Assembly (NCBI RefSeq): GCF_026571515.1
Contig: NW_026854096.1
Location: 310,001-374,000, forward strand
Source: Ruditapes philippinarum
Taxonomy: Eukaryota
Length of the DNA: 64,000 bases
Direction of reading: 5' to 3'
Part shown: one piece after another, positions 16,597 through 63,094 of the stretch
Numbering within the stretch: position 1 is the stretch's first letter
Layout of the letters: the number at the start of each line of letters is the position of its first letter
Program-made: the position numbers and the translations under genes
The notes under the pieces: generated by a model
The model's database searches: none
Seen by the model: the letters and a program-made list of their open reading frames with translations, nothing else
Told to the model about the DNA's origin: nothing

Positions 16597-16854
16597 TATA
16601 AGATATAACTGTATTTCAACACGAAACATATCAAGATAATTCAAAGTTAAGGAATTAGATGCCTACGTTAATTTGAAAGTATGTATGAGCATACTTTTAA
16701 CGTTGACATATTTTGTTCGAAATTTTTTATGCACTTAACATTTAAGTAAAAAATGGCATTCATCTTCAATATCGTTCATATCACATACTTTAAACAGATG
16801 TTCCTGTCTTTCCAACATACTGTCTTGACCATACCTGGCAGACTCAGTCCATAA

Positions 16855-16869
16855 ATAATAATAATAATG

Positions 16870-16909
<40 letters not shown>

Positions 16910-20924: not shown

Positions 20925-20988
<64 letters not shown>

Positions 20989-24524: not shown

Positions 24525-24736
24525 ATGAGCCGCGTCACGACAAAACCAACGTTATGCGTTTGCGACCAGCATGGATCATGACCAGCCTGCGCATCCGCGC
24601 AGTCTGATCAGGATCCATGCTTTTCGCTTACCAACTATATTACAAGTAGAGAAACTGATAGCGAACAGCATTGATCCTGGTCTGGTTCCATGCTGGTCGA
24701 AAACGCATAACGTTGGTTTCGTCGTGACGCGGCTCA
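24525..24736. mobile_element. Palindromic MITE, internally deleted copy
   Basis: TIRs TGAGCCGCGTCACGACAAAACCAAC...GTTGGTTTCGTCGTGACGCGGCTCA; same family as 57251-57488. Confidence 0.88.
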
Positions 24737-25389
24737 TATATTCGTTGTGCCGACTTCTTAAGTTTCAGTAAATGACACACCGCATGTATTTAACGCTACT
24801 TGAATTGAGTCAAATTACAGTAGAGTGGAAAAATTTAATGTAGTCACAAGACTATTTAAATGACGTTACAGGTGAAATTAGATAAAATGAATTTGATCTC
24901 ATTTCATGTGACAATTTTATTTACGTACATGGATAGAGTGTTCAAACTTTCGTGAAACAGAACTAACTACAAGTTAGATCATGCTTGCTATTTATAAATG
25001 CATGACATGTTACATCAATCGTTACTATTCGGCCCTTTCCGTAGGGATTATTATGAAAAATAGCCGAGGACGTTTCAATTGCTATGGCAGATAACTAGTA
25101 TCAAGTTGCCTGTTGAAACTTGAATTATTCACGTGAGTCAAGTCCAATTATTTTAATGGCTAGGATCCCATTAAAATTCTAAAAATAAGGAAATGAAAAT
25201 GTGAGACCATGAACGCAAAACAGATTTATTTATTTTCCGGGGATTTTTACTAAAGTGAGTATATAAGAAAATACTTTCACTCGTTTACATTATAATAATT
25301 CTTTTGGCAAAATATAATCTGTTAGTTAAGATTTCAAAAATCTGAATTAACAATAAAGATACATTATTTTGTTCTTGAAATTAACTAAA

Positions 25390-26803
25390 ATGTTTGAAAA
25401 TAATACATATTCAGCTAACTGGGTGGGCCTAATCAGGTACCGGGCACACTTTGATTTGATGGCATATAGAGAAGGAGATTATTTTGACGTGTACAAGGTA
25501 TTCAACTTTCAATGAAAGATTTCATATAATGCTAAGAGATTAAAACGTTTTGTGATTTCTTATTCTTTTTTTCTCTTCTTTTTTAAGGGAAATGATAAAA
25601 TGATTGATTGATTTCTGAAAATGTAAGGGTCTGATAAATTAAGTACTTAAATTACTTCAAATATCAAGGTAATATAAATGGATTATGAGAGATGATAAAC
25701 ACTTTATATTGAATGAAACTATCTTATTTCAACTATCTTGTTTAATCTATTATCAGGGGAAGGCATTTAGCTGTAAAGATTATATTCCAAGGTCGGTAGT
25801 TGTGAAGGGTATGCGGCATTACTGTGGTGAACAAGAGGATTTTGAGATGTATAGATTTTGCAGTGAACAGAGCCGAAAAATAGCCATTCAATTCAACAAA
25901 CTTTCCACAGTATTTCCATGCAAGGTTAGTAAATATTTTTAACTTTTTATCTTTTTTTTACAAATATATGATGAAACGTCAGTTATTCTAAATATTATAC
26001 GTTTAAGTATGTGCAAAATATTTCTAACATTTTTATCGTCGTTTTTTTCTCTCAAGTATTTGGAAGACTGTAGGCTCAATTGATGTTAAAGTGTTAAATT
26101 AACAGAAACAACATATAATTATCTATATAATTTAATATATGTACTAGTAATAGATGTTTTTAAACAATGCTGATGTTTTTATACAATGGTGAACAGTAAC
26201 GGAATGACATTACATAAAAATCATAAAACCAAATAGCAAGTAAAGCATACATCTATACAGGTATATCAACATTCAAAGCATTATATTTCATACATCGGCC
26301 ATTGAATACTAAGTTTTGTTGTAAAGAAAATTTAGTGGACTCAATTTTCATTTTAGATACGTTTTGTTGTCCCTGCAGTTACACAAATCGACACAAGATC
26401 TACCGTAGCCTTCGGCAAGAAATTCAACAAAGATGAATATGTTGCCTTTGAAGAAAAGCTTGAAGGAAATTTTACCACTTTCATTGACAAAAGGGGAAAT
26501 ACGTTGGATGGAAATAAATGTTGTTTGATTTTAGAAGCATTTAGTCATTATTCTTTCGTTGTTTCGGAAGGAAATTTTGTAATTTGTGGTCTCCAAGGTG
26601 TATATAGAAAGGACAAATCAGAATTCATCCTAACCAACCCGACAATACATTCGAGAGAAGGTAAATTTGGTCCCGGAGACAAGCGAGATCCGGGAATAAG
26701 AGATGTTACACAGAATCATACTTGTAATAAGTTTTGCCAAATGTTTATGAATAAACCATCAAAGTCTGCGACAGAACTTGAAAATGAATTTGGAGAGATC
26801 TGA
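25390..26803 (+). CDS. Alpha-kinase-fold protein 1 (predicted pseudokinase), 240 aa, 3 coding exons
   Basis: Exons 25390-25497, 25757-25924 and 26357-26803 (phase-0 GT-AG introns). Motifs VVVKG, FEEKLEGNF, AFSHYSF, ICGLQGV, LTNPTIHS, HTCNKFC align with the eEF2K/MHCK/TRPM7 alpha-kinase domain. Confidence 0.9.
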
Positions 26804-29296: not shown

Positions 29297-29671
29297 TGAA
29301 ACCAGTTTTTCAAGTAGTCAAAATGGATTTTAAATGATCTTGTTCATTTAGTCAATAACTTTCATCAAATAAAGAATTTGCATCAATTTATCAGCTCAAA
29401 AATATTTTTCTCACATTTTCCATTATTTTAAAAGGATGTACACATTTCAATATATACTCCATTGTTTTTAGCTAATTGCATCATTTTCCCGCCTTTTTAT
29501 TCACATATTTTACAGAAACATGATAGTATTGCAAAGACAAAGGTATAAATCCTGGGCAATCTTTATAAGACATTTCAGTAAAAATTGTGCCTGATAAAAT
29601 ATTGAAAGGGCCATTTATTTAGCTTATCTAAATGTGACATGTAAGAAACTTAAATAGGTGTAGACACGGCC
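28921..29671. mobile_element. PIF/Harbinger-like MITE
   Basis: Imperfect TIRs GGCCCGTCTACACCTAT ... ATAGGTGTAGACACGGCC; flanked by TAAA on the left and TAA on the right; internal poly-A at ~29263-29294. Confidence 0.65.
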
Positions 29672-29677
29672 TAACTA

Positions 29678-31745: not shown

Positions 31746-34091
31746 TACTTAGTACATGACCTCTTCAAAAGAATTTTTTTAAATACGCAAAGGTAAATTA
31801 AACGAGTTTAATAGCTTTGTATTAACTTTGGCCTATTCAAAGGCCCGCTCGATTAGGTCATTGAACAATTGCAACACTGCATTCTAACTATTGCAGCAAT
31901 TCAGTATTTGGTATTTGACGTACAAAATGGCGTCTCAGATTCCTAGAGTCTTTCACGAGCCAGCATAAACAGAACCATGATACAGCAATTGATGAATTTA
32001 CTGCAACAGGAGCTGATGCTTGTAGTTCTAAAGAGCAATTACATTAAATGATATAAAGTTTGTAACCATCGCCGTACAAATTTAAATAGTCACTCTTAAT
32101 CAAACTAATTGGGATATTTTAGCAAACGGCTATATCCCAGTTATAGATATGAAATTTAAATAATTTTAACTTTGTCATGAATGAGAGATTGTAAAAGTGT
32201 ACATATGCAATTAAACAGAGTCATGTGCACAGTGTATATCCTGGTCATGACGGTGTTTATTTTCTTTATGATTTAAATGGCACAAACATAATAAACTAGC
32301 TATAAATATGTTATGGTATTACAATATAACCATAACAAGACTGTGTCATTTCGTTACATGTTTTAGAATTGCATTCTTTTCAATGAATTCTAAGCTCAGC
32401 AAATTCATACTGTCCGTTTTCTGTAGTCTCTATTATTTTGTTCTATAGAAGCAACAAATTCTTTCAATATTTTGTTCATTTTGTCGATTTTTATATATAT
32501 TCGGGATCTGAAATGTAAAACTATATTCCGATAATAAACTCTGATTGAAAAACACGTATCGTGAAACCCTTATCTCTATTTAAATGTTTTGTTCATTGAA
32601 GTAAAATGTATGACCTGGATTTACTTCTCAGTTGTATCTACAGGTAAGAAATTTATTTCTCGATTATGAAAATCATGGAAATACCCTTCTATAAATTTGA
32701 TCTAAATTTCGGAGATAAGTTCCTATTTTTAGTTTAGAGATTATGAAAATGTTGTGACCTTTTCGGTAACCAAGATATCTGATTAATCTTTTAACTGGTA
32801 ACTTTTCGATATATTTACGTGCGAGGAAATATATATTTACGCGGGAGAAAATATTCGTCATAATTAATCAAATTTTAGATAAATACATATAGATATATTA
32901 AAGGAACTCCAATCAGGTTAAATAGCCTTAAACATAACATTTGAAGTTCTTACAAGAGCCTTGACAGTTAAAAGAGGGGAGAGACGTGCAAAAGATAATT
33001 ACGAAATATACCAAGAAATAAATTGAAAAATATTTTTGCCATATTCTTGGAAAACGTTTATCATTAGAATAATTATTCTGGAAAAACGAAGTGAGCGAAT
33101 GATCTGAATTCTTTTTCCATAAGTCTTTCCATAAGATCTAAACATACATCAAATCGAACATTACTTTAGATAAAAAAAAAATCCAGTTCAATCATGTCAA
33201 AAACTCTAGCGGAGTGACGTGAGAAACCTGGTATGTACAAATGCAATAACATGCGATAAAACAGATTGTTTTTCTACCTTTACTACAAGGTTCTGTTTAT
33301 AATAACTTTATAATTACCCTGTATTTATTGCTGAACTCTACTCGTACCACTTTACAAAACATTTGATATTACGCAGTGATTTAGAAAATTTCTATCTGAA
33401 TTTCAGCTTTTAATGAGAAAACCGAGTTGACAAATTTATCATATTTACTTTTTACAACTTAAAAGAGATATTAAATTGTAATTACATTTAGAATTTATTC
33501 AGAATACAAATGATTTTAAATGTTCACTTATAGACGAAATATTTGTTACATTGGTTTGAAATTTCTTGCATGGCGACCTTTGACTTAATTAATAGGCTAC
33601 ATTGACGTCGCAGCTGACAAGGTAAAATTATATATGGAAAAAATCATTCAAAAACAGAAATAGCAAAATTGTCAATGGCGGTATTGTTTAATGTATTTTC
33701 TGTCACCAAATATTGATTGGAATGCTCTTATCACAACTTGAAAATAAATTAGAATAACCAAACGTTAATATTGCTTTTACAGTGCAGGAAGTTTAATCGC
33801 TTAATCTACATTATATCTCGGAGTTTATATGGAAACAAACACATCAAATAACATTTGTAAGATCTAAATTTACGCAAAATACTACACTCACGCCGGGAAA
33901 CCATTTCTATTAATAAGAACAGCCAAGAACCAATATAAAAACGCAGAACTAATTCGGATTCCTGGAATTTCCAAATTTGTGAGTATTTAAGATATGTTTT
34001 CTGCGTCAAAAATCACTTTGCGATTTGTTTTCATAATTTTGAGACTTCAGATTATATTATTTATCTTCAAGACTTATTAAACATTACAAAA

Positions 34092-35284
34092 ATGCTTGAA
34101 AATAGCACATATTCTGTTAAATGGCCGAAAGTTATTGGCAACACAAAGAGGTATCGAGCATCGTTCGGGCTAAAGTCGTTCATGGAAGGGGAACATTTGA
34201 TTGTTTTTAAGGTAATTCAGAAAGACAGTAGGTATTCCGTATTGGTAAGATAAACTAATGAGAGGAGTTGAAATGTATTTAAGGGGCTCAAAATATTAAA
34301 ATGGTATCAAAATTTGGAAAAAGGGGTGATAGATACGGCTGATAAAATATTAACCCTACTATCAATGTAAAACTCCAATTTATTAAAATAGCAACATTCT
34401 GCCATGTCTGGCGTGTATGAAATTTGATTTTTTTTATTTTAGGGCAAGGCGTTTAGTCATGAAGATTATATTCCGAGGCCTGTTGTTGTGAAGAGTATGA
34501 GGTACTTCTGTGGAAATAAAGATGACTTTGAGATGTATAAACTTTGCAACGAACAAACCCGAATATTGGCCATTCACTTCAACAAACTATCCGCAACTTT
34601 TTCAAGCAAAGTAAGTTCATTTACGGACTATTTTAACGAATATAAATATACATTTACATACAAATTTATTTAGAGATATAAACATTGTGTATTGTTCTGT
34701 TCAAAATAGCATTAACCGAAAAAGATTTTATGCTTATTTTTACGAAACTAATAAAAAACCAACTATTTGATGTATGTATGCCATTGAATAATAATTATTT
34801 TTGTAGAGCACTTTTCAAATTTTTTCAGAAGATGCAATCTACATTTAAGTTACGGTTTGTTGTTGCTGCTGTTACGCAAATCGACACAAGATCTACCTTA
34901 GCCTTGGGCAAGAAATTTAAGAAAGATGAATATGTCGCCTTTGAGGAAAAGCTTGAAGGAAAGTTTACAACTTTTATTGACAAGCGGGGAGAGACGTTGG
35001 ATAGAAATAAATGTTGTTTGATTTTGGAGGCATTCAGCCATTTTTCTTTTGTCGTTTCTGGAGAAAACTTTGTTATTTGTGGTCTCAAAGGCGTTTATAG
35101 AGAGGACAAATCAGACTTCATCCTAACCAACCCGACAATACATTCGAGAGAAGGTAAATTTGGTCAGAAAGACAAGCGAGACCCGGGAATAAGAGATGTT
35201 ACAAAGAACCATACTTGCAATAAGTTTTGCCAAATGTTTATGAAGAAACCATCAACATTTGACAATGGCACAAGCGAGATATGA
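34092..35284 (+). CDS. Alpha-kinase-fold protein 2 (predicted pseudokinase), ~240 aa, 3 coding exons
   Basis: Exons 34092-34211, 34443-34610 and 34850(or in-frame 34829)-35284; paralogous to 25390-26803; ICGLKGV, LTNPTIHS, HTCNKFC. Confidence 0.9.
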
Positions 35285-38200: not shown

Positions 38201-38433
38201 TTACTTGCCAAATTTATCATATTTAATTTTACAACTTTAGAGATTCATACATAACATAAAATATGTAACTTATTTAGAATACAAATGATCTAAATATACG
38301 TATAAATATACACTTGATAGACGAAACATGTGTTGTGACGGTTTTAAATTATTTGAAAATACGTAATGATGTAATGCAACTCGTAACTAATTAGGCTACA
38401 TTGACACTGCAGTTAAGGAAGTTAATATAATCA

Positions 38434-39255
38434 TTTCATTTCATTTCATTTATTGGCAAATCGGCATAATAATGCCTTTGACCATTTACACATACTAATA
38501 CACATGGTCAAGACATACAGTATACATAAAAGATACACAAATGAATACACATTTAATCTTTACATAATAAATAATCACCAAATATCAAACATTAACACAA
38601 TTTTTAACTCACAAAGGTAATAAGTCCTACGAAGCAGCATTATTTTCAAGGGTTAGACTTCTCAATTTATAAGCTTCTGTTAAAAACTTTGCATTTTTTA
38701 CAATACTAGTTCTACGTTTTGATGACATAATATTAATGAACTTTTGTACTGAAGGCCAAGCATTATTTGTAAAATATTTCTGTCGTAGGTCATAATATTT
38801 ATTACAACATAACAAAAAATGGTACTCAGATTCAACGGATTGTGATTGACAAAGTTTACATATACGATTTTGTCTTTCAATGCCAGTATATCTACCTACT
38901 TCAATTTCGAGATTATGTGCTGATATTCTAAATTTAGTGTATAGCTCTCTTTGTTTACTATTAGTCAAAATATCTAGATATTTTTCATAACAAAAATCGA
39001 CTTTAAATTGTTTATAGTATTCAAGTTTAGCTACATTACGAATCTCCATTTGCCAGTTTTGGATATATTGATCGCGTAGTCTTTGTTTCAAAATACAAAA
39101 ATAGTTACAGGAAGAGTCAAAATTTGACCATATATCACATAAACCTAGACTATCAAGTAAATTTTTAATTTTATTTGACCAAGAATTTGCGTTCTGGGAA
39201 TTACATTGCTCTCTAAAAAGTGTATACATAGGCATGTGTTGATTACTCATTATTT
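38434..39255 (-). mobile_element. 5'-truncated LINE insertion with intact ORF2 C-terminal segment
   Basis: ORF 38627-39268 with KFRISAHNLEIEVGRY..RICKLC..ESEYHFLLCC; tail AATAA(ATGAA)n; 12-bp TSD TTAATATAATCA at 38422-38433 and 39256-39267. Confidence 0.93.
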
Positions 39256-39797
39256 TTAATATAATCAATTGACAGTATTTTTTTCTGAGAAAGAAGTGTT
39301 ATAAATCAATGGCAGTAAGGTTTGCGCCAAGGATTGCTTCGAATGCTCATATTGCAACTTTAGTATAACATAGACTATTAAATTTGAAAGATTTTCTCAA
39401 GCATTGTCTTAGAAATTTCCTTTATATACAATGCAGTTGTGTCCATTAATATGAAATAAAGGAAGTTTAATCGCTATCTATAACTTAAAATGTACTTTAT
39501 GATTTTATTTATATATCCACAGTAAAGCTTTTGCTTAATGCCTATACCCATTTACATGTGTACGCCAATATTTAAACTTTTCTCAACGCGCTCTCATATA
39601 TTTGGGACACCATTTTCTATTTATAAAGACAACAATCTTCATCGCAGTATTGTTTTCGTTTCCGGCAAATTAAATATTGTGAGTATATATAAGTATATAA
39701 GGAAGTATGTTTTCATCTCTTTATGTACAACATACACTTAGCGATTTGTTTTTCCTTGTGTTTTTTATGATTAAATTTTGCAAAATTCATTGTGAAA

Positions 39798-40844
39798 ATG
39801 CTGGAAAATAGTACATATTCAGTTTATTGGCCGAAATTAAACGGCATGAAAAGGGACAAAATAACAAGGTATCGTGCATCGTTTGGACCGAAATCTTTTA
39901 TGGAAGGGGAACATTTGATTGTTTTTAAGGTAATTTTCTATACGACATTAAAGCGTTAGTTCTGAGTGCAATATTTGTAGCATCTGAGACTTAAACAAAA
40001 GTTATTGTCTGTGGCGTGTTCGCATGTTGTTTAGCTTTAATGTATAATACATATACATTTTTTTCATCATCATATTTCAATGCTGTTGACAAATAACGAC
40101 AAAGTACTAGATATTCAATTTGCAATGAAAAAAGTATATAGAAGCTTAAACAATTGTGAGTTGCAAAAGGACTAAATTTACTAGGGTTTCTGACATGATT
40201 TGACTGGAGTTAATTTTTCAAGATGTAATGTTCGATTTGATGTAAGTTTGGACCTATAACTTGTATGCAAAATTTCAGATCGTTTGTTCAATCCGTTTAT
40301 CCAGAATAATTATTCTAATTGTGAAAAAAAAACGAACCAAAATTTATAAGCGGTGCGGCGCTTTTCATTAGAATAGCACAAAAATAGGATTTTCAATTAA
40401 TTTCTGGACATATTTCTTAATTATCTTGTGCTTATCTCGAGTGCCCAAGTTGATCTATGTAAAAGCTTCAAATTTTATGTTTTATGATTTTTAACCTCAT
40501 TTGAGTTCCTTTTAAAAGGCATCAAAAAGCAAGGTTTTATATGGCTTATAAAACATAAACCATACTATCAATTTTAGATAATTTTAATTGCAAAATATGT
40601 AATGTCTGTCGTTAATGAAATCTAAATTTGAGATTAACAGGTTACAGAGTTTTATGGTTGACATCAAAAGTCATCTTATGTACAGTACATGTATTTATTT
40701 TTTTACTATGTTTTTATATATTTCGGCTCAGGATTTTAAATTGTCTGCTAATTATCTTTTTACAATTTTAGTAATGTGTTTTAAATCCTAGCTGTAAACA
40801 AGAGTGTCATTAACTGAAGATTTGACTGTGATATACATTTTTAT

Positions 40845-40919
<75 letters not shown>

Positions 40920-41309
40920 TTCGGCATAGGAAGCATATACATAGTTGACAACATAACATAGGATAAAATAATGAGCATTATTAAATACTATATCACATAC
41001 GAGAAAACTATGACATGCTCACCAACACCAATGATAACACAAAAAAGGGCAAACAAGCTCTTATTTCCATTGTGGTCCTTTGTATTAGTACTTTTAAACA
41101 TGATTATATTTAGGTCTGCCTCTCTATATCATGCCGCCAATACAAAGGACCACAATGAAAATAAGAGCTTTTTTGCCCTTTTTTGTGTTATCCTTGGGGT
41201 TGGTGAGCATGTCATAGTTTTCTCGTATGTGATATAGTATTTAATAATGCTCATTATTTTATCCTATGATATGTTGTCAACTATGTATATGCTTCCTATG
41301 CGGAAATAA

Positions 41310-41371
<62 letters not shown>

Positions 41372-42253
41372 AAATTGTCTATCATATTTCAGGGCAAGGC
41401 GTTTAGTCATGAAGATTATATTCCGAGGCCTGTTGTTGTAAAGGGTATGAGGTACTTCTGTGGAAATAAAGATGACTTTGAAATGTATAAACTTTGCAAC
41501 GAACAAAGCCGGAAAATAGCCATTCAATTCAATAAGCTGTCCACAACCTTTTCTAGCAAGGTAAATCTATATTTTACGAATTATTTCAACAAATTTCTAA
41601 TAAGTGATTGTTGTTAAAGATTAAATATTTAAGATTGATATTGTTTATTTCAAAACGTTATGCACAATTCATGCCATAGAAGCATTTCTTTAAAATGGCA
41701 ATATACATATCCATTCAAAGTTAAAAGGATTTACAATATTTTATGTACGAGAAATGCTAACATTAGACATTTAATAAAAATTATAATTGGAAATCACATA
41801 GTTTAATCTTTTAAAAATGCATGTACATTTCAGCTACGTTTTGTTGTCCCTGCTGTTACACAAATTGACACTAGATCTGGCGTAACCTTCGGCAAGAAGT
41901 TTAAGAAAGATGAATCTGTGGCCTTTGAGGAAAAACTTGAAGGAAATTTTACCACTTTTATTGACAAGAGGGGAAATACCTATTGTTTGATTTTGGAGGC
42001 ATTCAGCCACTTTTCTTTTGTCATTTCGGAAGGAAATTTTGTAATTTGTGGTCTGAAAGGTGTTTATAGAAAGGACAAATCAGAATTCATCCTAACCAAC
42101 CCGACAATACATTCGAGAGAAGGTAAATTTGGTCCGAAAGACAAGCGAGATCCGGGAATAAGAGATGTTACGGATAACCATACTTGCAATAAGTTTTGCC
42201 AAATGTTTTTAAATAAACCATCAAAAATTACCAATGGACCAGACGAGATTTGA
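39798..42253 (+). CDS. Alpha-kinase-fold protein 3 (predicted pseudokinase), 239 aa, 3 coding exons
   Basis: Exons 39798-39929, 41393-41560 and 41834-42253; GT-AG introns at the same positions as the paralogs; ICGLKGV, LTNPTIHS, HTCNKFC. Confidence 0.9.
40845..41370. mobile_element. Hairpin MITE-like element bounded by (GATA)n and (TATC)n
   Basis: ~170-bp inverted arms (~40918-41087 and ~41139-41306) around a ~50-bp loop; (GATA)n on the left and (TATC)n on the right. Confidence 0.85.
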
Positions 42254-44662: not shown

Positions 44663-47600
44663 GGCAGAATTCTAGAGAGGACATGACAACGATTTATATA
44701 CAAAAAATGCACAACATGTGTTCTCTTGCTCAAATATGCATTGACTTAAGACATTTAATAATAATAATAATAATACACATATGGTTTTATGTTTATTTGC
44801 CCTGACGATTATAGAAACCGGTAAGAAATAAATTAAATTGAGAAAATCCAGTTAATTTCAGTTATTTTTTTATATATTTTTTTTCTTGTTCCGGCACTTT
44901 TTATCATTTTACACATTTATATATAAAAAGAAAAGAAAAAGGAAAAGATGGTTCAGATAATTGAGTATCTTATAAGAAACTATAAAAGCATACCAAAAAA
45001 AAAAAAAAAAAAATGAAAAAGATTTTTAGAAATAAAATAAAAGTTTTTGTATACGGACAATCTAATCGTTCGATATTTACGATGACGAAGGACTGGCTGG
45101 GATTCTGTTCATTACTGGTGCGAACATTTTGCGCATACGTAATTTGCCTCATTTTAAGCACTTGTTTTCCATTAAACTATTTTCAACAAATGTTCTACGT
45201 TTTCTTTCTGTTTAAAATCATGTGAATTGTACTTCATACTTTAAACGAGCCGTCAAGACTTTTTATCACCCAGATAAAATGCTTTGTCATTTATTTACAA
45301 AAGAAAACCAATCATGATATCTTATAAACACATAATTTCCTGTACGTATTGTTAAATTAAAACGAAACTTAAAACCACACAAATACCCACCGAGATGTTA
45401 ATAAAATAATTTAACAAACAGTCGATGGAGAATGTTCTAAATTAATGAGCACTTGTTCAAATTCTCTTTATTCATGAACAAATAAAGTTGAGAGAAATAT
45501 TTAATTAATTCACTTTAATTCACGAAGGCTGATTGAAAAGAAATAAACTTTACATAGCTGGGAGACTTATTGTTTTATTGTCCTAATCAAACACTTACAC
45601 TGCACCGTTACACTCATTCAGGCAATATTGCAGAGATACTTAGTTCTCGTTGTTTTACGTTCAACCATGATGTTATTCAAAGCCGGGACAAAGTATGTCC
45701 CGACATGAAGTGGAAAGAAATATTTTACGAATGGGAAACACCTAATAAAGCTCTTCAGTACATGATTCAAAACTAAATGATCCGTCTTTGTAAAATGATA
45801 GTTTTGCTGCCCTACTTCGCAATAAATGCAGATAACTGTATACGTGAAAATAAGTTCGTATATGACAAAATATCGTTAAAGTATAGATTATGTGTATTTT
45901 CGACTGATTTAAAGTGTGATGTTTAACCGGGGAAAATTAAAAAAAGTAATGTTTCTGAATGTCACATAATTTCATTGGAATAGTATATTAAGAGTTTCGA
46001 TTGGTTATTATAAATAATTTATTTGATAGTAAAAGGTTATTACGGTCTCTCCGCCTTTTAAATACTTTACAGCATTCTGCTATAGGAGGATAGGGAGTTT
46101 ATGACCTACGTAATTGTCAACAAGTCTAAACGAAACAATTTGATTTTGAAGTTGAAAGTATATCCCTGTGTAACAACGGCCCAGTGAAAGCCATGCTGAA
46201 ACCGAGGTAAATGACATTTGGCCACCGGTATAGAGCCGACTTTACTATATTAATAGCCATTTTTTGTATATTGGTACTAAAATTCCTATAACTTTAAATG
46301 GTCTGTAAAAACAAAGCTTGACAAAGTCATTACCTAATTGTAACAAGTGAAAGGTGTTCAGCTACAAAGGACAAATAACAGGTCCAAGTAGCTCTTATGA
46401 GCCATGTTTGTCCAGCGCCGCCATTCAAACCATCAATCGCTTTTAGAAAATTAGCATTCTTTCATACTCTACAGAGAATCGTTTTGGATAGGGTCATTTC
46501 TTTCCCTCTCTCGTTTTAAATGTTGAAATAACCTTTAGAAGTTTAGATTGTTTTGGTTAAATATCTACTTCTGAGAACCAAATTTGTTTTGTTTAAATAT
46601 ATTGATAAAACTTACTCGTGTGACAAAACAACATAAGAAAGTTGACAATTTCTTCTAAAAAAATAAAGATTTGAATAATAAAAAATTTAGAACACAATTG
46701 TTTTGATGTATAATAACTTTATTTAGATATGGAGTGAAAAAATATCATATTTTTATTTTTTCCCAATAACTATTATTTCTAAACACTTTCGACACTCGAC
46801 ATTAATAGCATATGACTAAATGCTCGATTAGAACATACACGAATAGAACGTGCATTTAATTAAATTCTGCATCTCGAATTTAACGGGCTTCATGATTTTT
46901 TATTTGAATTAAGCCTTTGCGCTGCGTACATTATGTGATTATTTAAAAGTGAAAATGATTCTAGAAATGGTTGAATCTAACAGGAGCATTGAAATAGAAA
47001 AAATGGGGGTGGGGGTATGGGATTACAGATTCTGTGTTTTTAAGTTTGAACATCGGAGATAATGGGTGATGCAACATTTGTAACGCCCCCCACCCCCACC
47101 CCCCAGCACCGACGTAAACAGTACAGGACATTATTTTACGGCTGCATTACACCAGTCCTACTATTGTGAGAAAAAAATATCATCAAATGTAAAAAGGTTC
47201 GCAAGTGCACAAATTGCAGTTAATTTTACTGTAACATTATGACATTTCGATATTTTTTCAAAAAGCGATTGAAAAAAAGAAACGCTACATTTTCAGATCA
47301 TTCTTTTTATTAATCATTATTGGTTTATCAGCAATAAATATCGAAAGTGAACAGATATGTTTTATTTGTGATATTTATGTAGTTTTAAGCTGTCGAAAAC
47401 AACAAAAATTAATGCAAAATATATATTAAGTAAGAAATCATGCACGTGCAATGTAATGCATATGACTGACGCTGATATTATATCTATCCTCGGTAATTAT
47501 AAACCGCGACAAGGAATACATATTGAGGGAAAGCACAACTGGTAAAATTATATGAAACTTAATCTTTTCCCTTTAGATATCGTTATTTGTGCATTATCTA

Positions 47601-49693
47601 ATGGTTTATTTTTGTAGTTCGAAATGGTATACATTTTTTTCCCGTATTAAAAAGATAAAAGCCCTATCATGTTAAGAATTACAATGAATATGTCAAATAT
47701 GCAAATATGCATAGCTTATCAAATAACAAAATTACCTCTTATCATTTTAATTACTTTCCTTATCCTTTTTTATTTCTATAAATATAATTTTACCTGCATA
47801 ACGAGAAAACTTCTTTCAAAAAGACATGACTTGTTGATTTAAATAGATTTTTTGTAAAACGCAGTGAAATAATTAGTTGTCATTTGTAATTTATTTTCAT
47901 AAAATCAAGAGGTTTAGAGTAATATATAAATTGACAACTGCATAAAAATAATTTTCCAGTTTTCAGAGTGATGTATATCTACTAAAACATTATATTTTCA
48001 GGTCAAGCATTTTAGTTTTTGAAACATCAAATAATAATTATTATAAAAAAATGGCATAGTGTAAAGCAAGCATATATATCCGGGCTCCTAGGCGTTGGTT
48101 ATATGGCTAAAATGCCGTTAATATATGGCCATATAACTTGTCAAAGGTTTTTTTAACCAATTTAAAGAAATAATGCAAAAATGCTGTCTGTCATTAAGAT
48201 GGAAATTTAATCATTATTTTGCATTAGTGTACATGTATATAGAAAATAAAAACGTCACTACTAAGTATTATCCAACGAAAATCGATGTTTCAAACGTGCA
48301 GTATTATAAATCATTATTTTTTCTTTTGTCGGTTGCTTATGTTTGCCTTCAGAAACAATTATTTTGATAAAAAAGATTGAAAATTTATTGCTGGGTTGTC
48401 ATATTTCATGACCGGAATGACCTGGGGTAAAATGAGACCGGATTACTTTATTCTTGAAAGAATTAAATGGTTTAATAAAAAAAGATAAGCGTTTATTTAT
48501 CTACTTCTTTCTAAAACATTAATAAAGATTTTGACTCCACAAGAAAATGTTCAAGTAATTTATCCAATTTTTAAGTACTTTGTATCTTATTTATTTCAAG
48601 GTTTATCCCTTTTTCTGTATGAAGATTGTCCAGTAATTCAATATTCAATACAACCGCAAAAAACTATTACATTATTCTATTTTAAGAACCATGAGCTGTA
48701 TGTATTTACAGATATAATATACGTATATTTCGCAAATCACTTGTGATACACTCTGGTTGCTCCTGTCCCATTTTGATAACAACTGAACAAACAAGAGGGG
48801 GGAAAAGAAGAAAGATAACACATACCATGTTATGATTTTTTTCTCTGTTAATCGCCTTTGGTACAAACAAAACTTTTATACTGTTTTTTTTCAGAATAGT
48901 TTTCCTTGAATTAACAATGGATAGGTTCAGTGTCAACGGAGGACACGTTCATTACATAAATATATTGATTTTTATGGGTTTTATTTACTTATTTATTTTT
49001 ATTTTTTGGTCGCACCAATTATGTCATGAAGTGTAATAGGTGGTCCACTCAGAGGGGAAAATATAATTTTGAAGTGAATTGAACGAACATAACTGAGATT
49101 TGATATTGTTTTTTTTATTTCTGTAAAACATACATGTACAAATCAAGAAATGAGCATATAGAAATAACAATACAGATAAAAATTAAATTATTTTTAAATT
49201 AAAGCATGTAGTTGCATGTACATATATTTGTATAGGCGGGGGATGAACGATAATGTATATATCGAACACAATATGTTGTAAATTAAATAATTGTTAAATA
49301 CATTAGGAAAAAATAGGATTTCTATTCAATGTCAAAAGGTTACATTGAATAAAAAGAAGATATTGTTTGTATACAGAAAGAACAACAACTGTACACTCAT
49401 GCTAGTTAATGTGGAGAACCGATCTCTTACTTTTGTTCAGTTATAGGGGATTGTTTTTGCTAAATATTCGAAAGCAAGGTCCCTTTCTATCGCCCCCTAC
49501 CTACCATCCAACCACTGCACCCAGACTAAAATGGATGCGACTACACTCATTGCCAAGAATGCATAGATTTACACAATATATGTACATTTGCATTTCATAT
49601 ATTCTTACTACGAGATCACGTAAGTCAATTTTAAATCTTGAGATCAAGCTCAAAACTGAGAAACATAACATTGACCGGAGATTGCAGAAGATG

Positions 49694-51875
49694 TCACGTG
49701 TTACCATCGCACGTGGTGTAAGAAGGCGGGCCAAATCTGTCCGACAATGAATATTCTGGCGGACGAACAGGTTCTCTGTCACAGTTGTGACGTTCAATGA
49801 GCGCGTGTTTCTCGTTGGTAAATACATCTTCATTGTTTACCTCACTTTGTTTAGAATTTTCATCGTTTAATTTCTTACTCCCATGAATGTTGACTGGTTT
49901 TGCAAAGCTTTGGCAAAATGCATTGCAGGTGTGGTTCACGAAAAAGGTATTAATCCCTTCGTCACGTTTGTCCTTATCGCCATAGCGACCGTCACGTGAG
50001 TGAATTGTGGGATTGCTCAGTTTGTACTCATCACCTTTTGCAATACCTTTAAGGTTACAAACCACTAAATTTCCTTCGGATTCGTGGTATGTGAAATGAC
50101 AAAAGGCGTCTAAAACATCAGGGCCATTACCGGTTGTATGTCCACTTGAATTGACAAATGTTTTGAAATCACCGTTTAGAAATTCTTCAAATAGCACAAC
50201 TTCGTCTTCCCCGAATGTTTTATCAAAACGCATGAGAATTCGCATGAATAGCATAACATATGACGTAGTGTCCATGACCACATCTATTGGTTTCATTACG
50301 TTAATCTGTAAATAAAGAGTTTTACGTTCAATTTCCACCTGACAGAAATTATAACGCCGTATATTTTTAATTTCAATTTAATATTTTATAAACAAATCAT
50401 ATTTAAATTATATTTGATCGGACGCAATTGTTAATAAGTTTGGTATTATAATCTAAGTTTGGTTTTCATTGGATAATAACAATAACAATAATAATAATAA
50501 GTAGGGATGGCAACGAGTAACCGGTTAACCGAGTACTCGATCGAACGTCCGAATATCGGTTAACAAAATTGATATTCGATTACTCGGAAAAAATGTATAA
50601 TTTCTATTTTATTTGCTATTTAGACAGTTTGGTGTATCCAATTAGTTCAGAAATTCAGAGATGTGCATATACCTTCATAAATACCTGTTAAATGCAATCA
50701 CAACTTCCTTGCATAGGTGCGAAAATGATACTATAAATTTAATGAGGCGATCAACAGTTTGACACGCGCACATGTGTCGCTTACGTCATCCGGCCTCTTA
50801 TGATATTTAGTAACCTTTAATTTTGTAACACAGCGCAGTTTGTACCCGAATCTTGTTTAAACGTAACATTTTTGAAAACAACAAAGGGCCGTATTGCTAT
50901 TATGATATAATAATTAAAGTAGTATTTAGATCATTGGAAATCGTCCGAGTAACCGAGTACTCGATCGGAAAAATGACCGAGTACTCGAGTATTGATTTTG
51001 GTATTCGTTGCCATCCTTAATAATAAGAATAATAATAATAAGAAGAAGAAGAAGTAACAACCAAAAACAAAACCCACAACCGCCAACAGAACAGCAAAAA
51101 CTTAACAGTTTTTAGGAGACGTTGTAATACATATTAAAAATCTAGTAGACCTACTTTATTGCCTTACCTTTTGTGTAAAAAATGTTCCATATTTGAATAT
51201 TTTTAATTAAATGGCCGGTTTATACGGAACCTCTTTCGTTGAGTTCTGCTGTATATTTAATTTTGTTTTGTTGAACCCATGATGCATAAATATGTCTAAC
51301 CTTTGTATCGCATGTCTTCTTTGCTAATATTTTGTTGAATGTTGCCGCCATTCTCCTTGTGACGTCACAGCGTTCTTTGTATGGTATCCAATCACTTGCT
51401 GTGCCTTCCCGATGCCGAAACGCCTTAAGAACAACCATAGTACCGTTGGTATAGTAAATCCTGTGATAAGCCATTCCCTGGGGAAAAAAACAATCGTGAA
51501 AATAGAATTAAGACTTTAAATCATTCTGTTAATACATTTAAAGTTTTAAAGAAACACATTTTTCTGAAACTCCTTTTCTATATATCATATGAATGTTTAT
51601 TGTCATAACAACATCTGTCTAATCAATATGATAATGAAAACAAAAACAAACGTAAAAAGAACACACCCACGCACATTCACACGCTTACACCTACATACAC
51701 GCAAGCACGAACGAACGCACGTACGTATTCGTGCACTCACAATCCTTAAACAGCCTACCTTAAAACCATAACATGTTTTCCCTGTCCATTCAGGGTAAAG
51801 TTCAAATGTTACCCAGTGAGTCAAGTTATGCTTCCAAGGTCTTGAAGATAGTGTCGTATTGGTCGTTCCCATCAT
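49694..51875 (-). CDS. Alpha-kinase-fold protein 4 (predicted pseudokinase with PPxY tail), ~301 aa, 3 coding exons
   Basis: Exons 51875-51759, 51477-51301 and 50305-49694, phase-0 GT-AG introns. VVLKAF, FEEFLNGDF, AFCHFTY, VCNLKGI, LSNPTIHS, HTCNAFC; tail PPEY..PPSY. Confidence 0.9.
50502..51019. mobile_element. hAT-type MITE in intron 2 of alpha-kinase gene 4
   Basis: TIRs TAGGGATGGCAACGA...TCGTTGCCATCCTTA; 8-bp TSD ATAATAAG (50494-50501, 51020-51027); subterminal CCGAGTACTCGA repeats. Confidence 0.92.
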
Positions 51876-56325: not shown

Positions 56326-57250
56326 TTTCAAACCAATTTTAAAAAACTTAAAAAAAGAAAGAAGATTAGTATCTATATTTCTGTTGTTTATTAAAATGAC
56401 GCCAAACCATCTCAGTTGTTTAACCTATATTCAGAATATTCCTACCTAGTATATATGTGCATTGTGAATGCAAGTGACGTAAGGGGTATTTTTCATTTGA
56501 GTTATTTAAGGTACAATTTCATAATGATGACTTTATTATACTATAACTATGCTCTTTCCGTATATCTAAAATCGCACACTCTGCAAGTGCCCACCTTTAG
56601 CACCATTTGTACTGCGCTTTCAAATCAGATGTGCGATTTTCGGTTCACCTATTGAACAAGATCAAGGCAGACAGTCCTCTTTGCTGATGATTTAGATAAT
56701 TTCTATAAAATATTTTTCAAAATGAAAACCGTAGCTAAACCTTTTATTTCTACTGTTGTAATGTGTGGATTTTTTTATTTCTTAAGAATATATGATTTGA
56801 GTGTAAAATACAAATACTGCGAAAAACAGGTGTAACGTGATAAAGATTTCTCATTTTAAATTTCAAAGGCATTTTACCTTTAAAGTTTGATAAAATTATT
56901 CTTGAGTTAACTTCCGACAGTTTCATGCCAAGAGTATATATATCAACAATGATCCATACTTTTTGTCCGGTGTAGCAGGTGTGCACATGGTGATACAGGT
57001 GTGCGTGTTAACTTTACTACGTTAGATTAGTGCTTGCACTGTGCTTGCCACTTTTAAGCACAAATTCGAAATGTATTTGAAAATCATCTTGTTGCATATT
57101 TGATCAAAAAGCAAAGAAGTTTATTAACTTGTAGGGGGCGAAGTGTCAAACTGTCTGGCAGCCAGTATAAAGCTGTGTATAAAGTAGTAACAAGAGCCCA
57201 TCTGAGGCAAATTATGACAAAAAATATGCCTCCAAGATAGAGAGCAAATT

Positions 57251-57488
57251 TGAGCCGTGTCACGACAAAACCAACATAGTGGGTTTTGCGACCAGCATGA
57301 ATCCAGACCAGCCTGCGCATCCGCGCAGTCTGATCAGGATCCATGGTGTTCGCTATCAGTTTCTCTACTTGTTATAGGGTTTGTAAGCGAACAGCATGGA
57401 TCCTGATCAGACTGCGCGGATGCGCAGGCTGGTCTGGATCCATACTGGTCGCAAACGCACTATGTTGGTTTTGTCGTGACGCGGCTCA
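57251..57488. mobile_element. Palindromic MITE, fuller-length copy
   Basis: ~100-bp inverted arms TGAGCCGTGTCACGACAAAACCAACATAGTG...; same family as 24525-24736. Confidence 0.9.
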
Positions 57489-60400
57489 TTTATTGTTATA
57501 AATAGCACAAATGATGACTTTTGTTTCGCCGAATGTACAGAGTCTAATTATTTTTAAGGCAACAGATTGTTTGCATATAAAGAAGCATAGATTTGTCTAT
57601 AATAAATTGATTGCAGAGAAAATCAAACATACATGTATGCTAAATCTAAACATTATCATTGTAAGCCTTCAAACGTTTTGCTTAGAAAACAAATAATTTC
57701 GCTGGAAATTTGCTTAAAAGGGGACATAACTCTTTCAATAATATGTTGATTGCAATGAAAATCTAATTTAACCTGTCGTTTGATTTACATACATGCGTAC
57801 TCACATGTCATACACAAACACTATCGTTAAAATCCTTTGAAAGTTATCATGCGAAAGCCACCCATGTAACAATTATACATTGATTGCAGAAAAAATATGA
57901 TATTATCGTGTGTTTTGCTATAACATACTTAAATGAAAAGTATAAACACAATATTTTGAAATCGTGCGAAAACCAAATTGTCTACGGACGGACGGACAGG
58001 CGGTTGGACGTTCTCGATGAGTTATAATTTTTTTCTTTGATCCTCTTTTATCTCTAAGTAATGAACACGTGCAGCTAAAACAATGAGAGCCTTATGCTTA
58101 AAGGTTTTGAGTTGGTGTGCTCGTATCCCGGGTATGCCATACTTTCTCTGTGAATATGTAGTCGATTATATTTATAATAATAAATGTATGTAGGCTTTTT
58201 TTGCTCTCAAGATTTGGTATTTACACATTCTTTCGCGTCATTTGTTCACTATGGTTTACATACAGTACGGCACGTCCTCGTGGAGACCTAACTTTTCATT
58301 TCTTAACCGCCTAATTACTGTTTCTTTTAGTTTAAAATAACATCTTAGTTTCTTTTTCGCGTGTTGACAGCTTCTGGTTTATATGACCACTGATGAAAAA
58401 AATCGCACAAATAAATGACGTATAGTCACATGACGTTAACGTTAGTGTGTTCCTCTTTACGTTACGTGACGTATTGTTCGTCCTAAAAGGTACAAAACTA
58501 CTTTGGACTGGTAAAAGAGAAACCAAGATAATATCGTTTTTCAACAGTTTATTGGCATTTTCTTTTTCTATATCCAATGGTTATCATGAAATACCCAGCT
58601 ATGATATTGTAAATGACAAAAAATACAAACAAATATGATATGAAAATGTAGCAATAAAATATATGTTCCATAAAAATAGTACCCTTTATTTATATGTTCA
58701 TTCTTATTAAGACTTTAGAGCATGCGTTATATAAGAGCACCCTTGATTATCTGAAATTAAGCTGGTCAATAGCAAGTTACTAGAATAAAGGCTTATGAGA
58801 TAACTTCTTGATAAAGGGATGCGCAAACATTTGGCTGTAGAACACAGATTTGATAATAAATAATGCTTGCAAAAATGTCAAAAAAGTTAAACATTCAGTT
58901 AAAACAAAAGTGAAAATGTAATTTGGTTTTGTATGTTTCAAAAGCGTTACTACCGGTTTTGTTTACTCGCATGTCTATAAATATACACAAGAACACAGTA
59001 CTGAAAATTAAAATTTATAGATAAGGTACTGCGTTACGCTTTTTCCATAAAAAGACTGACAAAAAATAAGTATGATATCATATTTGTTCTACATATATAA
59101 ATGGGTTTGTGATATCTAAAAACAGATCATTCATGTGTGTGGGTTTTTTTAATCTTTCATTTAAAGAGGTTTGCTTATCGCTTATTTATACATTACCTTC
59201 AAACTTTTTATTTTCATTTCAGGTTTATGTTAACACTAAAGCTACAATATAATTTATAAAACCTTAACTATTTAACTACAAACAAAACACAACAAAAATA
59301 AATAATATTTAAATATTTTATCTATAACTAACCATAATAACTAACAGGCAACGGATATGCTAGATTCTTCACGGGGTTAATAAATACATGTAATAAATAA
59401 TAAAAAGGTCAACAGCACATGCGAATATTATAAATAATGTATATATTTAATGAACTATATATGATAAATAAAAGTAAATATTAAAATTTGCCATTTAAAA
59501 AATTAATCTAATCACTTATAAGAAGATAGAAAAAAATCACAATAATGAATTTCATAGAAGAGTTTGTTATCTATATGTATTGTACAATGAAGTTTTAACG
59601 AAGTTTTATTTGTTTCAGTAAATATTATTTTAATCACATTTTACAGTTACATTCTGTAGTACACACACTTTATCTTACGTTTTGTATTGCATGTGAATTT
59701 CATTCAAATTTGCAAGAATGAAGTTTAATTCAACATAAAATGATGCATAATTATAGTATTGCTTATTGCAAAATAATTACGGAATTAAAGTTTTTTACTG
59801 ACAATAAGCATGAATTGTAATCTAGAAACGCGAATAAAACTATGAGATCCATTATCCATTATGAGACGAATAGCAAAATAGATGGCCGAAAAAAAATCAA
59901 TACAAATAAAACTTATACTAATAACAATAAAAAATATGTTTTATATAAAATTGTTCAAGCTGTAGTTAAATTGTAATAACTTCACCATCCCTTTGTTAAC
60001 TTGATCATTTAAAGACAAAAAAACATAAAAGTAAAAAAAAAACACAAAAAAACCCCTGAAATATTGCACTTTGTCAGTAGAGGAATGTACATTTAAAGCC
60101 AGCTATGGGTATGAATATATCAAAACAGCATAGAAAATATAGTCCATGCAGTGAGCATGAGATTCGCGAGAAGGGAGATTACTCCTAATGAAAATTGTAT
60201 TAGTCTATTTTATAGCGTCATGGTTTGTTTAGAATTCTAACAAACGATAATCTTTTAAGCTAAGATTCAAAGTGCCCTTAATTTTAAAATTGGTTTAAAA
60301 ACAATTTAAAAATCTTATATCTACAAATACGGAGAGAGATAAGAAACGGACATTCGATATCGCAAATTCTCGGTCGTCACCGTTCTCTGCGATATGTCAG

Positions 60401-61189: not shown

Positions 61190-63094
61190 TCATGAAGAAC
61201 TATCCTTCATGCACGTGTCGTAAGATGGCGGACCAAATGGGTCTGATGATGTATACGCTGGTAGACGAGTTGGTCCCGGTTCATGATTATTTTGTTCCAT
61301 TGATAAGTTTGCATTTTCCGCCTCTTTTCCTTTTGTGAGAGTGTTTTCGCCAAAGCAGACGGATCGTGAACTTGGATTTTCAAAACATTCCTCAACGTGT
61401 ATATGCTCTGGTTTAACAAAAGTTGCACACATGGCATTACAAGAATGGTTTCTGAAAAAATCGATGATTCCAACATCGCGTTTGTCCTTATCACCATAGC
61501 GACCGTCACGTGAGTGAATTGTGGGATTGCTCAGCTTGTACTCGCCATCTTCCTCAATTCCTTTAAGGTTACACACTACTAATTTTTCTTCGGATGCATG
61601 ATATGTGTAATGGCAAAAAGCGTCTAACGCCTCAGAACCATTTCCGGTTGCCAGTCCATTGGTGCAGACGAATGTTTTAAAATCTCCGTCCAAGAATTGT
61701 TCAAATAAAACAACTTCGTCTTTCTCGAATTTCTTATCGAATCGCATGAAAATTCCCGTGATTCTCATCACATCTGATATGCTGTCCATAATGGCGTCTA
61801 TTGGTTTTAGTACAATTAGCTGAAATATATATCATACAATCTTGTTGTCATAGAAATGGTTTTAATATCATGTAAAGTGACGTCAGATGTGCACATTCTC
61901 ATCGCTTACTCTACATGGTTGAACATTTTGCTATATTTTCATATAAATGTAAAATTTAATAACGAAACAAATTTTCGTTTCATTTCACTCCAGATGTGGG
62001 CCAATGTCTGGTTTGTGCATGTGTGTTGTTTGTTTTTTTGTCTGTTCTTTTTTGTTGATTTGTTTAGTGATTTTTTTAAAAATTTTAAAAGTATATCTTA
62101 AAACCATTAACCATGACATTGAATTTGAAAAGCTATGTGAAGAATGTATCGGGTCAAAGTAACAAAGCTTTATCGACCTGATACGTTTAGAGCAATTAAA
62201 AAAGAAACTTGAAACCATGTCATTTAAATTTCCGTTTTTATCACAAATATCACAAACAATTCCTAGAACGAAATTAAAATCAAGTTTTATTTAAATTCCT
62301 GTAAACAGGGGAAAATGCATGATGGGTAACTAATAAATATGCACAAACACAAAAAATATAGATATTTAGTAGCCTGGATCTTTTTTTTATATATTTTAGT
62401 AGCCTGAATCTTTTTTATATATTTGAGTAGCCTGAATAATCGTTTTTATATATTTGAGTAGCCTGAATCTTTTTATTAAGTTGATAATACAGGTACCATT
62501 TTATAAATATCTCATCCAAATAGACACATATGCAAGTTTCGATACTATTAAACAATTAAACTTATCTCTCTCTTAAAATCAATACAAGACCCTTGTGAAC
62601 ATGAAAACTGGATTGCACTAAAGCATACTTTATGTTACATGTATCAAGTTTAAAATGTTTTCACATGTAAAACTCAAAAATGTTTGCGCACATATTTAAT
62701 GCGATAATCATGTGTTTTTGTTATTTTTTGTTTCATAAATTTTCATTTTTGCTCATTTATTTTTTGTTTTTTGTGTGTGTGCGTGTGTCTGTGTGTGTAC
62801 TTTCGGGTCTTCGTTCTTTTTGGGTTGTGTTTTATGAAAATAATATTGAATTTTCACTGAAAACGGTCCCTTTCACATTTTTTTCACCAAAATTACACAA
62901 AAAGAACACCTGCTTACCTTTGTATTGCAGGAAATAGTTGCTAAATGTTTGTTGAATTCAGCCGCCATTTTTCTTGCTACGTCACAGCATTCTTTGTACG
63001 GCGTCCAATCAATCGCGCTGCCTACTCGGTGTCTGAATGTCTTGACAACCACCATCGTGCCGGAGAAATAGTCCTTCTGATGATATGCCATCCC
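61190..63094 (-). CDS. Alpha-kinase-fold protein 5 (predicted pseudokinase with LPxY/PPxY tail); exons 2-3 only, exon 1 probably beyond the window
   Basis: Exons 63094-62918 and 61819-61190; paralog of gene 4; VVVKTF, AFCHYTY, VCNLKGI, LSNPTIHS, HSCNAMC; tail LPAY..PPSY. Confidence 0.88.
62360..62475. repeat. Short minisatellite (~4 copies of a ~28-33 bp unit)
   Basis: Repeated ATATTT(G/T)AGTAGCCTG(A/G)ATC unit in intron 2 of gene 5. Confidence 0.8.

Follow-up and report, generated by a model that had tools for sequence, protein, structure and literature searches.

A tandem PY-motif tail on a predicted alpha-kinase-fold pseudokinase of Ruditapes philippinarum and its mollusc relatives: candidate adaptors for NEDD4-family ubiquitin ligases

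In the Tribbles proteins, the ligase-binding motif sits in the C-terminal tail. Among other short tail motifs, [LP]PxY (PY) binds the WW domains of the NEDD4 family, and P[ST]AP binds TSG101. The dead kinase domain of Tribbles TRIB1-3 was described to recruit substrates to the ubiquitin ligase COP1 (bioRxiv 10.1101/313767). Here, we describe a gene with a related layout in a 64,000-nucleotide stretch of the clam Ruditapes philippinarum (contig NW_026854096.1, positions 310,001 to 374,000), which we call the window and to which all positions refer. The gene lies on the minus strand and is the fourth of five alpha-kinase-domain genes within the window. Its product, P0002, joins a predicted dead alpha-kinase fold to a tail with two PY motifs. 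Tribbles differs in its conventional kinase fold and its use of the RING ligase COP1, whereas P0002 has an alpha-kinase fold and PY motifs of the kind used for WW-HECT ligases.

A folded domain followed by a disordered tail with [LP]PxY motifs is also the layout of the alpha-arrestins; arrestin N and C domains were not found in P0002, for which Pfam and fold searches returned alpha-kinases only. ARRDC1 uses a PSAP motif for TSG101 and drives microvesicle release (PMC9105457); relatives of P0002 have PSAP, but P0002 lacks it. LITAF (SIMPLE), whose domain binds zinc and is attached to membranes, resembles the family in the two PPxY motifs and the P(S/T)AP motif that its flexible arm carries next to this domain (PMC5142333, PMC5095921), and its PPSY motif was reported to bind NEDD4 (PMC5142333). 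Unlike LITAF and NDFIP, P0002 has no LITAF domain or transmembrane segment, and its motifs are C-terminal. Viral late domains form similar PY/P[ST]AP tails (PMC8402826). ALPK3 is alike in having an alpha-kinase fold without measurable activity and was proposed as a MuRF scaffold (PMC9698156, PMC12132735); two of its four divergent positions (TRPM7 K1729 and Q1769) appear to map by offset to T147 and K184 of P0002. In contrast, ALPK3, a muscle protein of 1907 aa, retains the predicted catalytic Asp and is linked to RING ligases, while P0002 is a stand-alone 301-aa domain with both Asp residues lost and a PY tail. With the PF02816 proteins MHCK-A, eEF2K, TRPM7, and vwkA, P0002 shares the fold, the zinc finger, the ATP-site Lys, and the hinge Glu; it differs in having lost catalytic residues and in having no vWA or other partner domain. 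Since pseudokinase-plus-ligase adaptors are already known (Tribbles-COP1 and ALPK3-MuRF), the initial annotation overstated the logic of the protein when it proposed a new adaptor class. A literature search, mostly outside subscription journals and with supplements excluded, found no published PY-tailed alpha-pseudokinase and no mollusc alpha-pseudokinase family. A family of mollusc alpha-pseudokinases with PY, and often PSAP, tails is apparently undescribed: its parts and its logic are known, and their combination in a mollusc-wide alpha-pseudokinase family appears to be new. For a mussel gene that bears the name 'VwkA', induction by low pH and expression in the larval shell field were reported (PMC9283884).

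A homologue search with the tail-encoding exon returned P0002, 100% identical over the exon and named 'alpha-protein kinase vwkA-like [Ruditapes philippinarum]' at NCBI. P0002 mapped to three exons with GT donors and AG acceptors. The gene and its tail comprise the following features:

51759..51875, minus strand: coding exon 1 (aa 1-39), identical to P0002 aa 1-39, with a GT donor directly after it
51301..51477, minus strand: coding exon 2 (aa 40-98) with the ATP-site Lys57 at 51424-51426; AG/GT boundaries and an exact P0002 match
49694..50305, minus strand: coding exon 3 (aa 99-301 and stop) with the C-lobe, the linker, and the PY tail; P0002 mapping and Pfam PF02816
49763..49894, minus strand: variable linker (aa 236-279), predicted disordered, with a model confidence (pLDDT) below 50 for aa 248-270
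49751..49762, minus strand: PY motif 1 (PPEY), with P281 in 18/19 and Y283 in 17/19 close homologues
49718..49729, minus strand: PY motif 2 (PPSY), with P291 in 19/19, P292 in 18/19, and Y294 in 18/19 close homologues

The translation of the last exon terminates with ...EPVRPPEYSLSDRFGPPSYTTCDGNT-stop (frame 49694-50338), and the starts of PPEY and PPSY lie 11 residues apart. A longer gene start in the open frame at 50306-50377 was ruled out, as this segment is intron with the acceptor at 50305. The tail contains five Lys residues, and 50 residues of linker separate C229, the last zinc ligand, from P280 of the first motif. The initial annotation had described two PY motifs 11 residues apart behind a poorly conserved linker of about 50 residues; its interval (49718..49762) spans both motifs exactly, with the strand, which it did not give, being minus, and the linker agrees in both length and divergence. 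Two [LP]PxY motifs occurred by chance in 0.0095% of 200,000 shuffles of the 72-aa tail. A six-frame scan of the window gave 20 [LP]PxY matches, four of which form the tandem pairs of this gene and of a paralogue (61220-61264).

The motifs were conserved among the close homologues (P0002-P0020, n=19; named members from Ruditapes, Mercenaria, Dreissena, Mactra, and Mya), which had been proposed as a check on their relevance. All 19 carried at least one [LP]PxY motif, and 14/19 carried two. Mean identity to P0002 over 18 close homologues was 9% in the linker (aa 236-279), 62% in the C-lobe, 60% in the first PY motif, and 82% in the second; these averages exclude the unrelated intact protein P0021. 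A comparison of the two tailed paralogues of the window gave a nonsynonymous divergence (dN) of 0.765 in the linker versus 0.225 over the motif block. Their domains differed with a dN of 0.176 and a synonymous divergence (dS) of 1.06, which indicates that the alpha-kinase fold is maintained by selection. Purifying selection acts on both fold and motifs. The spacing of 11 residues was found in 16 of 42 PY intervals, with 14 of these in the close clade.

Searching 1.84 billion representatives with a profile yielded 4326 proteins at E 0.001. The best 150 of these and the earlier matches gave 164 proteins. According to their residues in the Gln column and both aspartate columns, they were sorted into dead-type (111), intact-type (49), intermediate (1), and incomplete (3); the sample is biased to the clade of the query, and the 19 members nearest to the query do not count as independent. 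Among tails of at least 30 aa, PY motifs were present in 61/89 dead-type members (shuffle mean, 7.4; maximum, 14) and in 3/41 intact-type members (shuffle, 0.9). P[ST]AP was present in 44/89 (shuffle, 1.3) and 2/41, respectively. Both motifs were found together in 36/89 dead-type tails, and PSAP stood upstream of the first PY in 35 of these 36 proteins. In dead-type tails of 30 to 500 aa, PY occurred in 60/87 versus a shuffle mean of 6.6, and P[ST]AP occurred in 44/87 versus 1.1, with scrambled forms at 0. The control patterns [LP]PxF (10), [LP]PxW (0), and reversed YxP[LP] (11) were not enriched in these 87 tails, and neither was the ALIX-type YPxL (5/87 versus 6.4 by shuffling). A dileucine-like pattern, which was widened after looking, was modestly enriched (21/87 versus 9.5); the linker of P0002 contains such a sequence, EKHALI, at 49796-49813 (minus strand). 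Three to five PY motifs were found in the relatives P0060, P0114, and P0121.

The domain-only tree (FastTree, 152 rows) omitted 12 of the 164 rows, which were incomplete, short, or without a located tail, and left 56 of 149 inner branches open. PY tails occurred in most dead-type subclades, with 14 state changes. P0002 has ENSK (49850-49861, minus strand) where relatives have PSAP; PSAP is likewise missing from the four proteins closest to it on the tree, and the exact motif was present in 7/19 close homologues. The P0002 copy has lost the PSAP seen in its relatives. The PSAP (ESCRT-I) motif and the spread of the family over bivalves and gastropods go beyond the initial annotation, and PSAP in the relatives suggests trafficking by way of endosomes or vesicles.

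A look-up of 30 members gave organism names for 15 clusters, comprising 14 molluscs and 1 acoel (intact-type). All 12 named dead-type members among these 30 were molluscs (bivalves, gastropods, and an octopus). PY-tailed dead-type proteins were named from Sinanodonta, scallops, Pinctada, Haliotis, Patella, Aplysia, Elysia, and Arion. The protein from Nucella carried PSAP only, and the Octopus protein carried neither motif; the latter (P0045, Octopus sinensis) consists of a dead-type domain followed by a low-complexity, repeat-rich tail of 3072 aa. A third homologue search, which returned 7 proteins, gave no further named taxon outside molluscs, and an Atlas search added other alpha-kinase clusters only. 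As half of the looked-up members lacked names, a range beyond molluscs is possible.

By sequence and predicted structure, P0002 belongs to the alpha-kinase fold family. PF02816 was the sole Pfam domain (108.8 bits versus a cutoff of 21.3; E 4.7e-31), and the Pfam search of the protein found no vWA or other partner domain; therefore, the name 'vwkA-like' reflects domain similarity only. A structure predicted from 146 sequences had a mean pLDDT of 86.2, mostly above 90 in the domain, while an 11-sequence alignment gave a pLDDT of 34. The model matched eEF2K with Z 21.4 and a root mean square deviation of 2.9 over 213 aligned residues. The fold search listed 23 alpha-kinase entries at Z 14.6 to 21.4, including an Entamoeba alpha-kinase, MHCK-A, TRPM7, and ALPK1; the next entry scored 8.2, and conventional kinases were listed below 7. 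Residues 2-240 form the alpha-kinase fold, and the remainder is a predicted disordered tail. The positions that bear on catalysis are as follows:

50045..50056, minus strand: degenerate catalytic loop, which reads NLKG here and DxQG in intact members; the Ala of MHCK-A D756A (PDB 4zs4) falls on N182 in the alignment
50012..50014, minus strand: Asn196, which replaces the second catalytic Asp (SNP instead of TDP) and is aligned with the Ala of MHCK-A D766A (PDB 3lmi)
49913..50098, minus strand: retained zinc-finger ligands H168, H223, C225, and C229, 98-100% conserved in dead-type members

Both MHCK-A mutants are called inactive in their PDB entry titles, and the TRPM7 aspartates matching N182 and N196 were reviewed as key catalytic residues (PMC2827801). 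Compared to the 49 intact-type relatives, P0002 also has lost the P-loop Arg (Cys35; Arg/Lys in 95% of intact-type), the helix-C acid (Tyr72; Asp/Glu in 92%), Lys147 (Thr), Asn151 (Ser), and Gln184 (Lys). It keeps Lys57, hinge Glu138, Asp210, and the four zinc ligands. The changed positions, both catalytic aspartates included, show free variation in the 111 dead-type members; the Lys57 position is Lys or Arg in 97% of dead-type members. The domain is predicted to be a catalytically dead alpha-kinase fold; at the sequence level, the earlier pseudokinase claim is borne out by N182, K184, and N196 in place of catalytic residues. ALPK3 was the sole described alpha-pseudokinase that we found in the literature, compared to 111 dead-type proteins among the 164 sampled here, and 'vwkA-like kinase' genes in mollusc expression studies may not encode kinases. 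As further observations on the domain, Asp210 (49970-49972, minus strand) was found in 100% of both dead-type (110) and intact-type (48) members and may be a metal or structural site. An N-x-T at aa 6-8 (51852-51860, minus strand) has Asn in 81% and Thr in 98% of dead-type members with a variable middle residue and is probably structural. Its use as a glycosylation site was set aside, as the protein is without a signal or membrane segment and the N-x-T forms the first strand of the model.

Two features of P0002 could bring it to a membrane:

51867..51872, minus strand: second ATG plus Gly (M-G-T-T-N-T), a possible N-myristoylation site from its sequence
50213..50263, minus strand: helical insertion of hydrophobic-basic character (aa 113-129, modeled as a helix at 116-123), a candidate membrane or partner surface

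The M-G-T-T-N-T start was judged by the consensus for N-myristoylation, and by the rule for start-codon context (A at -3, G at +4) the second ATG is the better one. A Met-Gly pair no more than 14 aa from the start of the domain was present in 33/80 dead-type and 13/24 intact-type members, and Gly2 combined with Ser/Thr6 was found in 16/80 and 9/24. The hydrophobic moment was 0.5 for aa 114-131, and the 24-aa insertion had a fixed length in all 18 close homologues scored. No transmembrane helix was found in the 10 proteins tested, with a best 19-residue hydropathy of 1.29 in P0002. As there is no hydrophobic signal or transmembrane segment, the PY tail is probably cytosolic, and membrane attachment may occur through Gly myristoylation and helix 113-129. 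Soluble PY proteins were reported to be poor activators of NEDD4-family ligases unless membrane-tethered or clustered (PMC5892558), which is why these membrane cues matter.

We also examined whether the tail is transcribed, another check that had been proposed. In 20 of 24 listed runs, at least half of the words of the stretch were present, and just 1 of these 20 was recorded as RNA. A contig of RNA run X2 (record 1) covers 49559..49927 (minus strand) at a depth of 18.5 and runs from the linker through both motifs and the stop into 135 nt of 3' untranslated region. Because this single RNA contig spans both motifs and the stop, we conclude that the PY tail is transcribed. The same run had zero depth in bins 46000-49004, and its record 7 joins exons 2 and 3 of paralogue P0005 exactly at the predicted sites. 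Reads were also mapped over 18 kb; a high-copy repeat swamped the result and hid most splice rows.

Candidate partners are available in the genome: WW exons followed by HECT exons on one strand were found on four contigs (C11258, C11685, C4135, and C6471). In total, the genome gave 38 WW matches on many contigs, most of them without a nearby HECT match, and eleven UEV family matches. The PY tail very probably binds WW domains, and its partner is likely a NEDD4-family ligase rather than another WW protein. We hypothesize that the tandem tail would dock onto such a ligase and help to activate it; multiple PY motifs were reported to be needed for the activation of WWP2 by NDFIP2 (PMC12720080). 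The pseudokinase would likely be membrane-associated, with its fold holding a cargo, and the pseudokinase together with the partner held by the dead fold would be ubiquitinated and sorted via the endosome and ESCRT. PSAP-bearing relatives would recruit ESCRT-I directly, and the P0002 copy, without PSAP, would rely on ubiquitin. For this trafficking-adaptor reading as a whole we see an even chance, and roughly the same can be said of P0002 acting as an adaptor for a separate cargo. If true, a second kinase fold would have independently taken up the Tribbles strategy and wired it to NEDD4 ligases and ESCRT. If the tails work, they offer an entry to receptor downregulation or vesicle release in farmed shellfish. 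A broader version is more tentative: molluscs may have made a membrane-attached alpha-kinase into a large family of dead-kinase 'arrestin analogues' in which the fold picks the cargo, PY recruits and activates NEDD4 ligases, and an ancestral PSAP recruits ESCRT-I. The choice of cargo could perhaps be nucleotide-gated in the retained Lys/Glu pocket, and the cargo could be sent to lysosomes or budded in ARRDC1-like vesicles. Should this hold, the proteins would be the first kinase-fold class of PY/PSAP adaptors.

Several observations weigh against the trafficking-adaptor reading. WW binding is its strong step and the separate cargo, which we infer, its weak one. PSAP is absent from P0002 itself, and the second PPSY of LITAF was unable to replace the first in pull-downs (PMC5142333), so that two motifs need not both be used. 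Myristoylation is uncertain, as the database model begins one Met earlier and 16/80 dead-type members fit Gly2 with Ser/Thr6. Three 2026 runs gave little raw-read depth on the exon (about 1, 0, and 2.5), and the rows shown, most of which were occupied by the repeat, contained no splice joint of the P0002 gene. The intact-type PY carriers (3/41) include Biomphalaria P0103, with one PY. Dead and intact types are not phylogenetically independent: there were three supported pairs without a consistent direction for PY. With only these three independent pairs and no power, the Fisher values of 1.5e-11 and 1.4e-7 are not proof of co-evolution. Finally, no PY was found in 28/89 dead-type members with tails of at least 30 aa, and three tail-less dead-type paralogues in the window (A, B, and C) are under purifying selection (dN of 0.08-0.10 versus dS of 0.30-0.40). 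As such copies are kept by selection, the dead fold serves a purpose for which a ligase tail is not required.

These selected tail-less copies and PY-less tails fit an explanation in which P0002 is cargo and not an adaptor. The PY motifs (and PSAP in relatives) would control the turnover, endosomal sorting, or vesicle release of the protein itself, and the dead fold would act independently of the ligase as a scaffold, decoy, or nucleotide binder. We consider this main rival unlikely overall; the five tail Lys residues and the dileucine-like pattern would suit it, and the mutation Y23A/Y61A was reported to mislocalize LITAF itself (PMC5142333). On the other side, whatever the fold binds also reaches the ligase, and the recurrent 11-residue spacing suits the engagement of two WW domains, which was linked to ligase activation (PMC12720080). 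To ask whether the active kinase is the cargo, the dead domain (aa 1-240) and the intact clam paralogue P0200 were modeled as a complex; the scores of 0.00 and 0.00, obtained without alignments or controls, weigh neither for nor against this idea.

The tail could also serve as a ligase regulator at the membrane, either activating a NEDD4-family ligase in the manner of NDFIP or soaking it up, without a substrate chosen by the fold. Tandem PY motifs combined with likely tethering correspond to the stated conditions of activation (PMC5892558, PMC12720080), and the relatives with three to five PY motifs would fit as well. We regard this explanation as improbable, since it leaves the retention of a 230-aa fold with a conserved surface insertion unexplained.

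Group I WW domains share the PPxY specificity, and such domains are also found in the non-ligase proteins YAP/Yorkie, WWOX, MAGI, and KIBRA. P0002 could therefore be a signaling scaffold for non-ligase partners, and the excess of genomic WW matches without a nearby HECT match is in line with this idea. It appears even less probable than ligase regulation, as 36/89 dead-type tails pair PY with P[ST]AP in the same way as ARRDC1, LITAF, and viral late domains, a pairing that was reported to work via NEDD4-family ligases and ESCRT-I (PMC9105457, PMC5142333, PMC8402826).

A domain that is not dead, with low noncanonical catalysis and a PY tail that delivers the ligase as its substrate, is very improbable. 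The kept Lys57, Glu138, Asp210, and zinc finger would allow for it, and pseudokinases are predicted imperfectly from sequence alone (PMC9698156). However, both aspartates whose single mutation inactivates MHCK-A are Asn in P0002, and the five further losses named above, from the P-loop Arg to Gln184, come on top of this. That the motifs arose by chance in a drifting tail has a negligible likelihood: short proline-rich motifs are common in disordered tails and one PY was seen in 1.9% of shuffles, but conservation in 19/19 close homologues refutes it, along with the orientation- and Tyr-specific enrichment and the low dN over the motifs.

The other alpha-kinase-domain genes of the window are as follows:

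61190..63094, minus strand: tandem paralogue P0005, exons 2-3, with LPAY at 61253-61264 and PPSY at 61220-61231
25390..26803, plus strand: tail-less dead-type paralogue A, three exons by exon mapping
34092..35284, plus strand: tail-less dead-type paralogue B, three exons by exon mapping
39798..42253, plus strand: tail-less dead-type paralogue C, three exons by exon mapping

The motifs of P0005 have the same spacing as those of P0002; its exon 1 was not found within the window. Paralogues A to C share the three-exon plan, start with Met-Phe or Met-Leu, and end 17 to 19 residues past the zinc finger. In all three, the helical insertion is shortened by most of its length, and both the N-terminal Gly and the PY tail are missing. 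This joint absence is as expected if the three elements form a unit, although it represents one event only. Paralogues A to C are possible soluble competitors of the tailed forms. Elsewhere in the genome, a copy on contig C11024 is 94% identical and keeps both motifs; it could represent the second haplotype or stem from a recent duplication. The locus L008 (contig C4292, about 38400-39800, minus strand) encodes a distant dead-type alpha-kinase in a single frame from MGQQVS, with PSAP followed by three PPPY motifs, a pattern retained in the relatives P0060, P0064, and P0086. The loci L010, L015-L017, and L022-L027 (contigs C3781, C4770, and C8833) are intact-type, with DLQG and TDP, and have starts of the myristoylation type (MGSSIS, MGVEQS); they have a hydrophobic insertion at the same place as P0002 and no PY tail.

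The window further contains an LTR-retroelement-like unit (538-7536; LTR, long terminal repeat) with 1369-bp direct repeats that are 99.4% identical (538-1906 and 6169-7536) and an exact internal duplication of 733 bp. Its open frames comprise 1957-2964, presumably gag-like (no Pfam match), an aspartic protease frame at 2965-3585 (Pfam gag-asp_proteas), and 4340-5218 without a Pfam match; among frames of 80 aa between the repeats, none was of the reverse-transcriptase or integrase type. A multi-exon flavin monooxygenase-like gene lies at 9867-12556 (minus strand; Pfam FMO-like on 10635-11351). Arrays of a 21-bp unit in opposite orientation (29671-30433 and 31242-31752) yield long spurious open frames. 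A high-copy element with inverted ends (57248-57493; copy at 24522-24742) showed a thousands-fold read depth in RNA runs. The region 14569-23289 holds duplicated blocks (2.5 kb at 86% and 1.2 kb at 82%) and broken reverse-transcriptase-like frames with an ADD motif recognized by eye.

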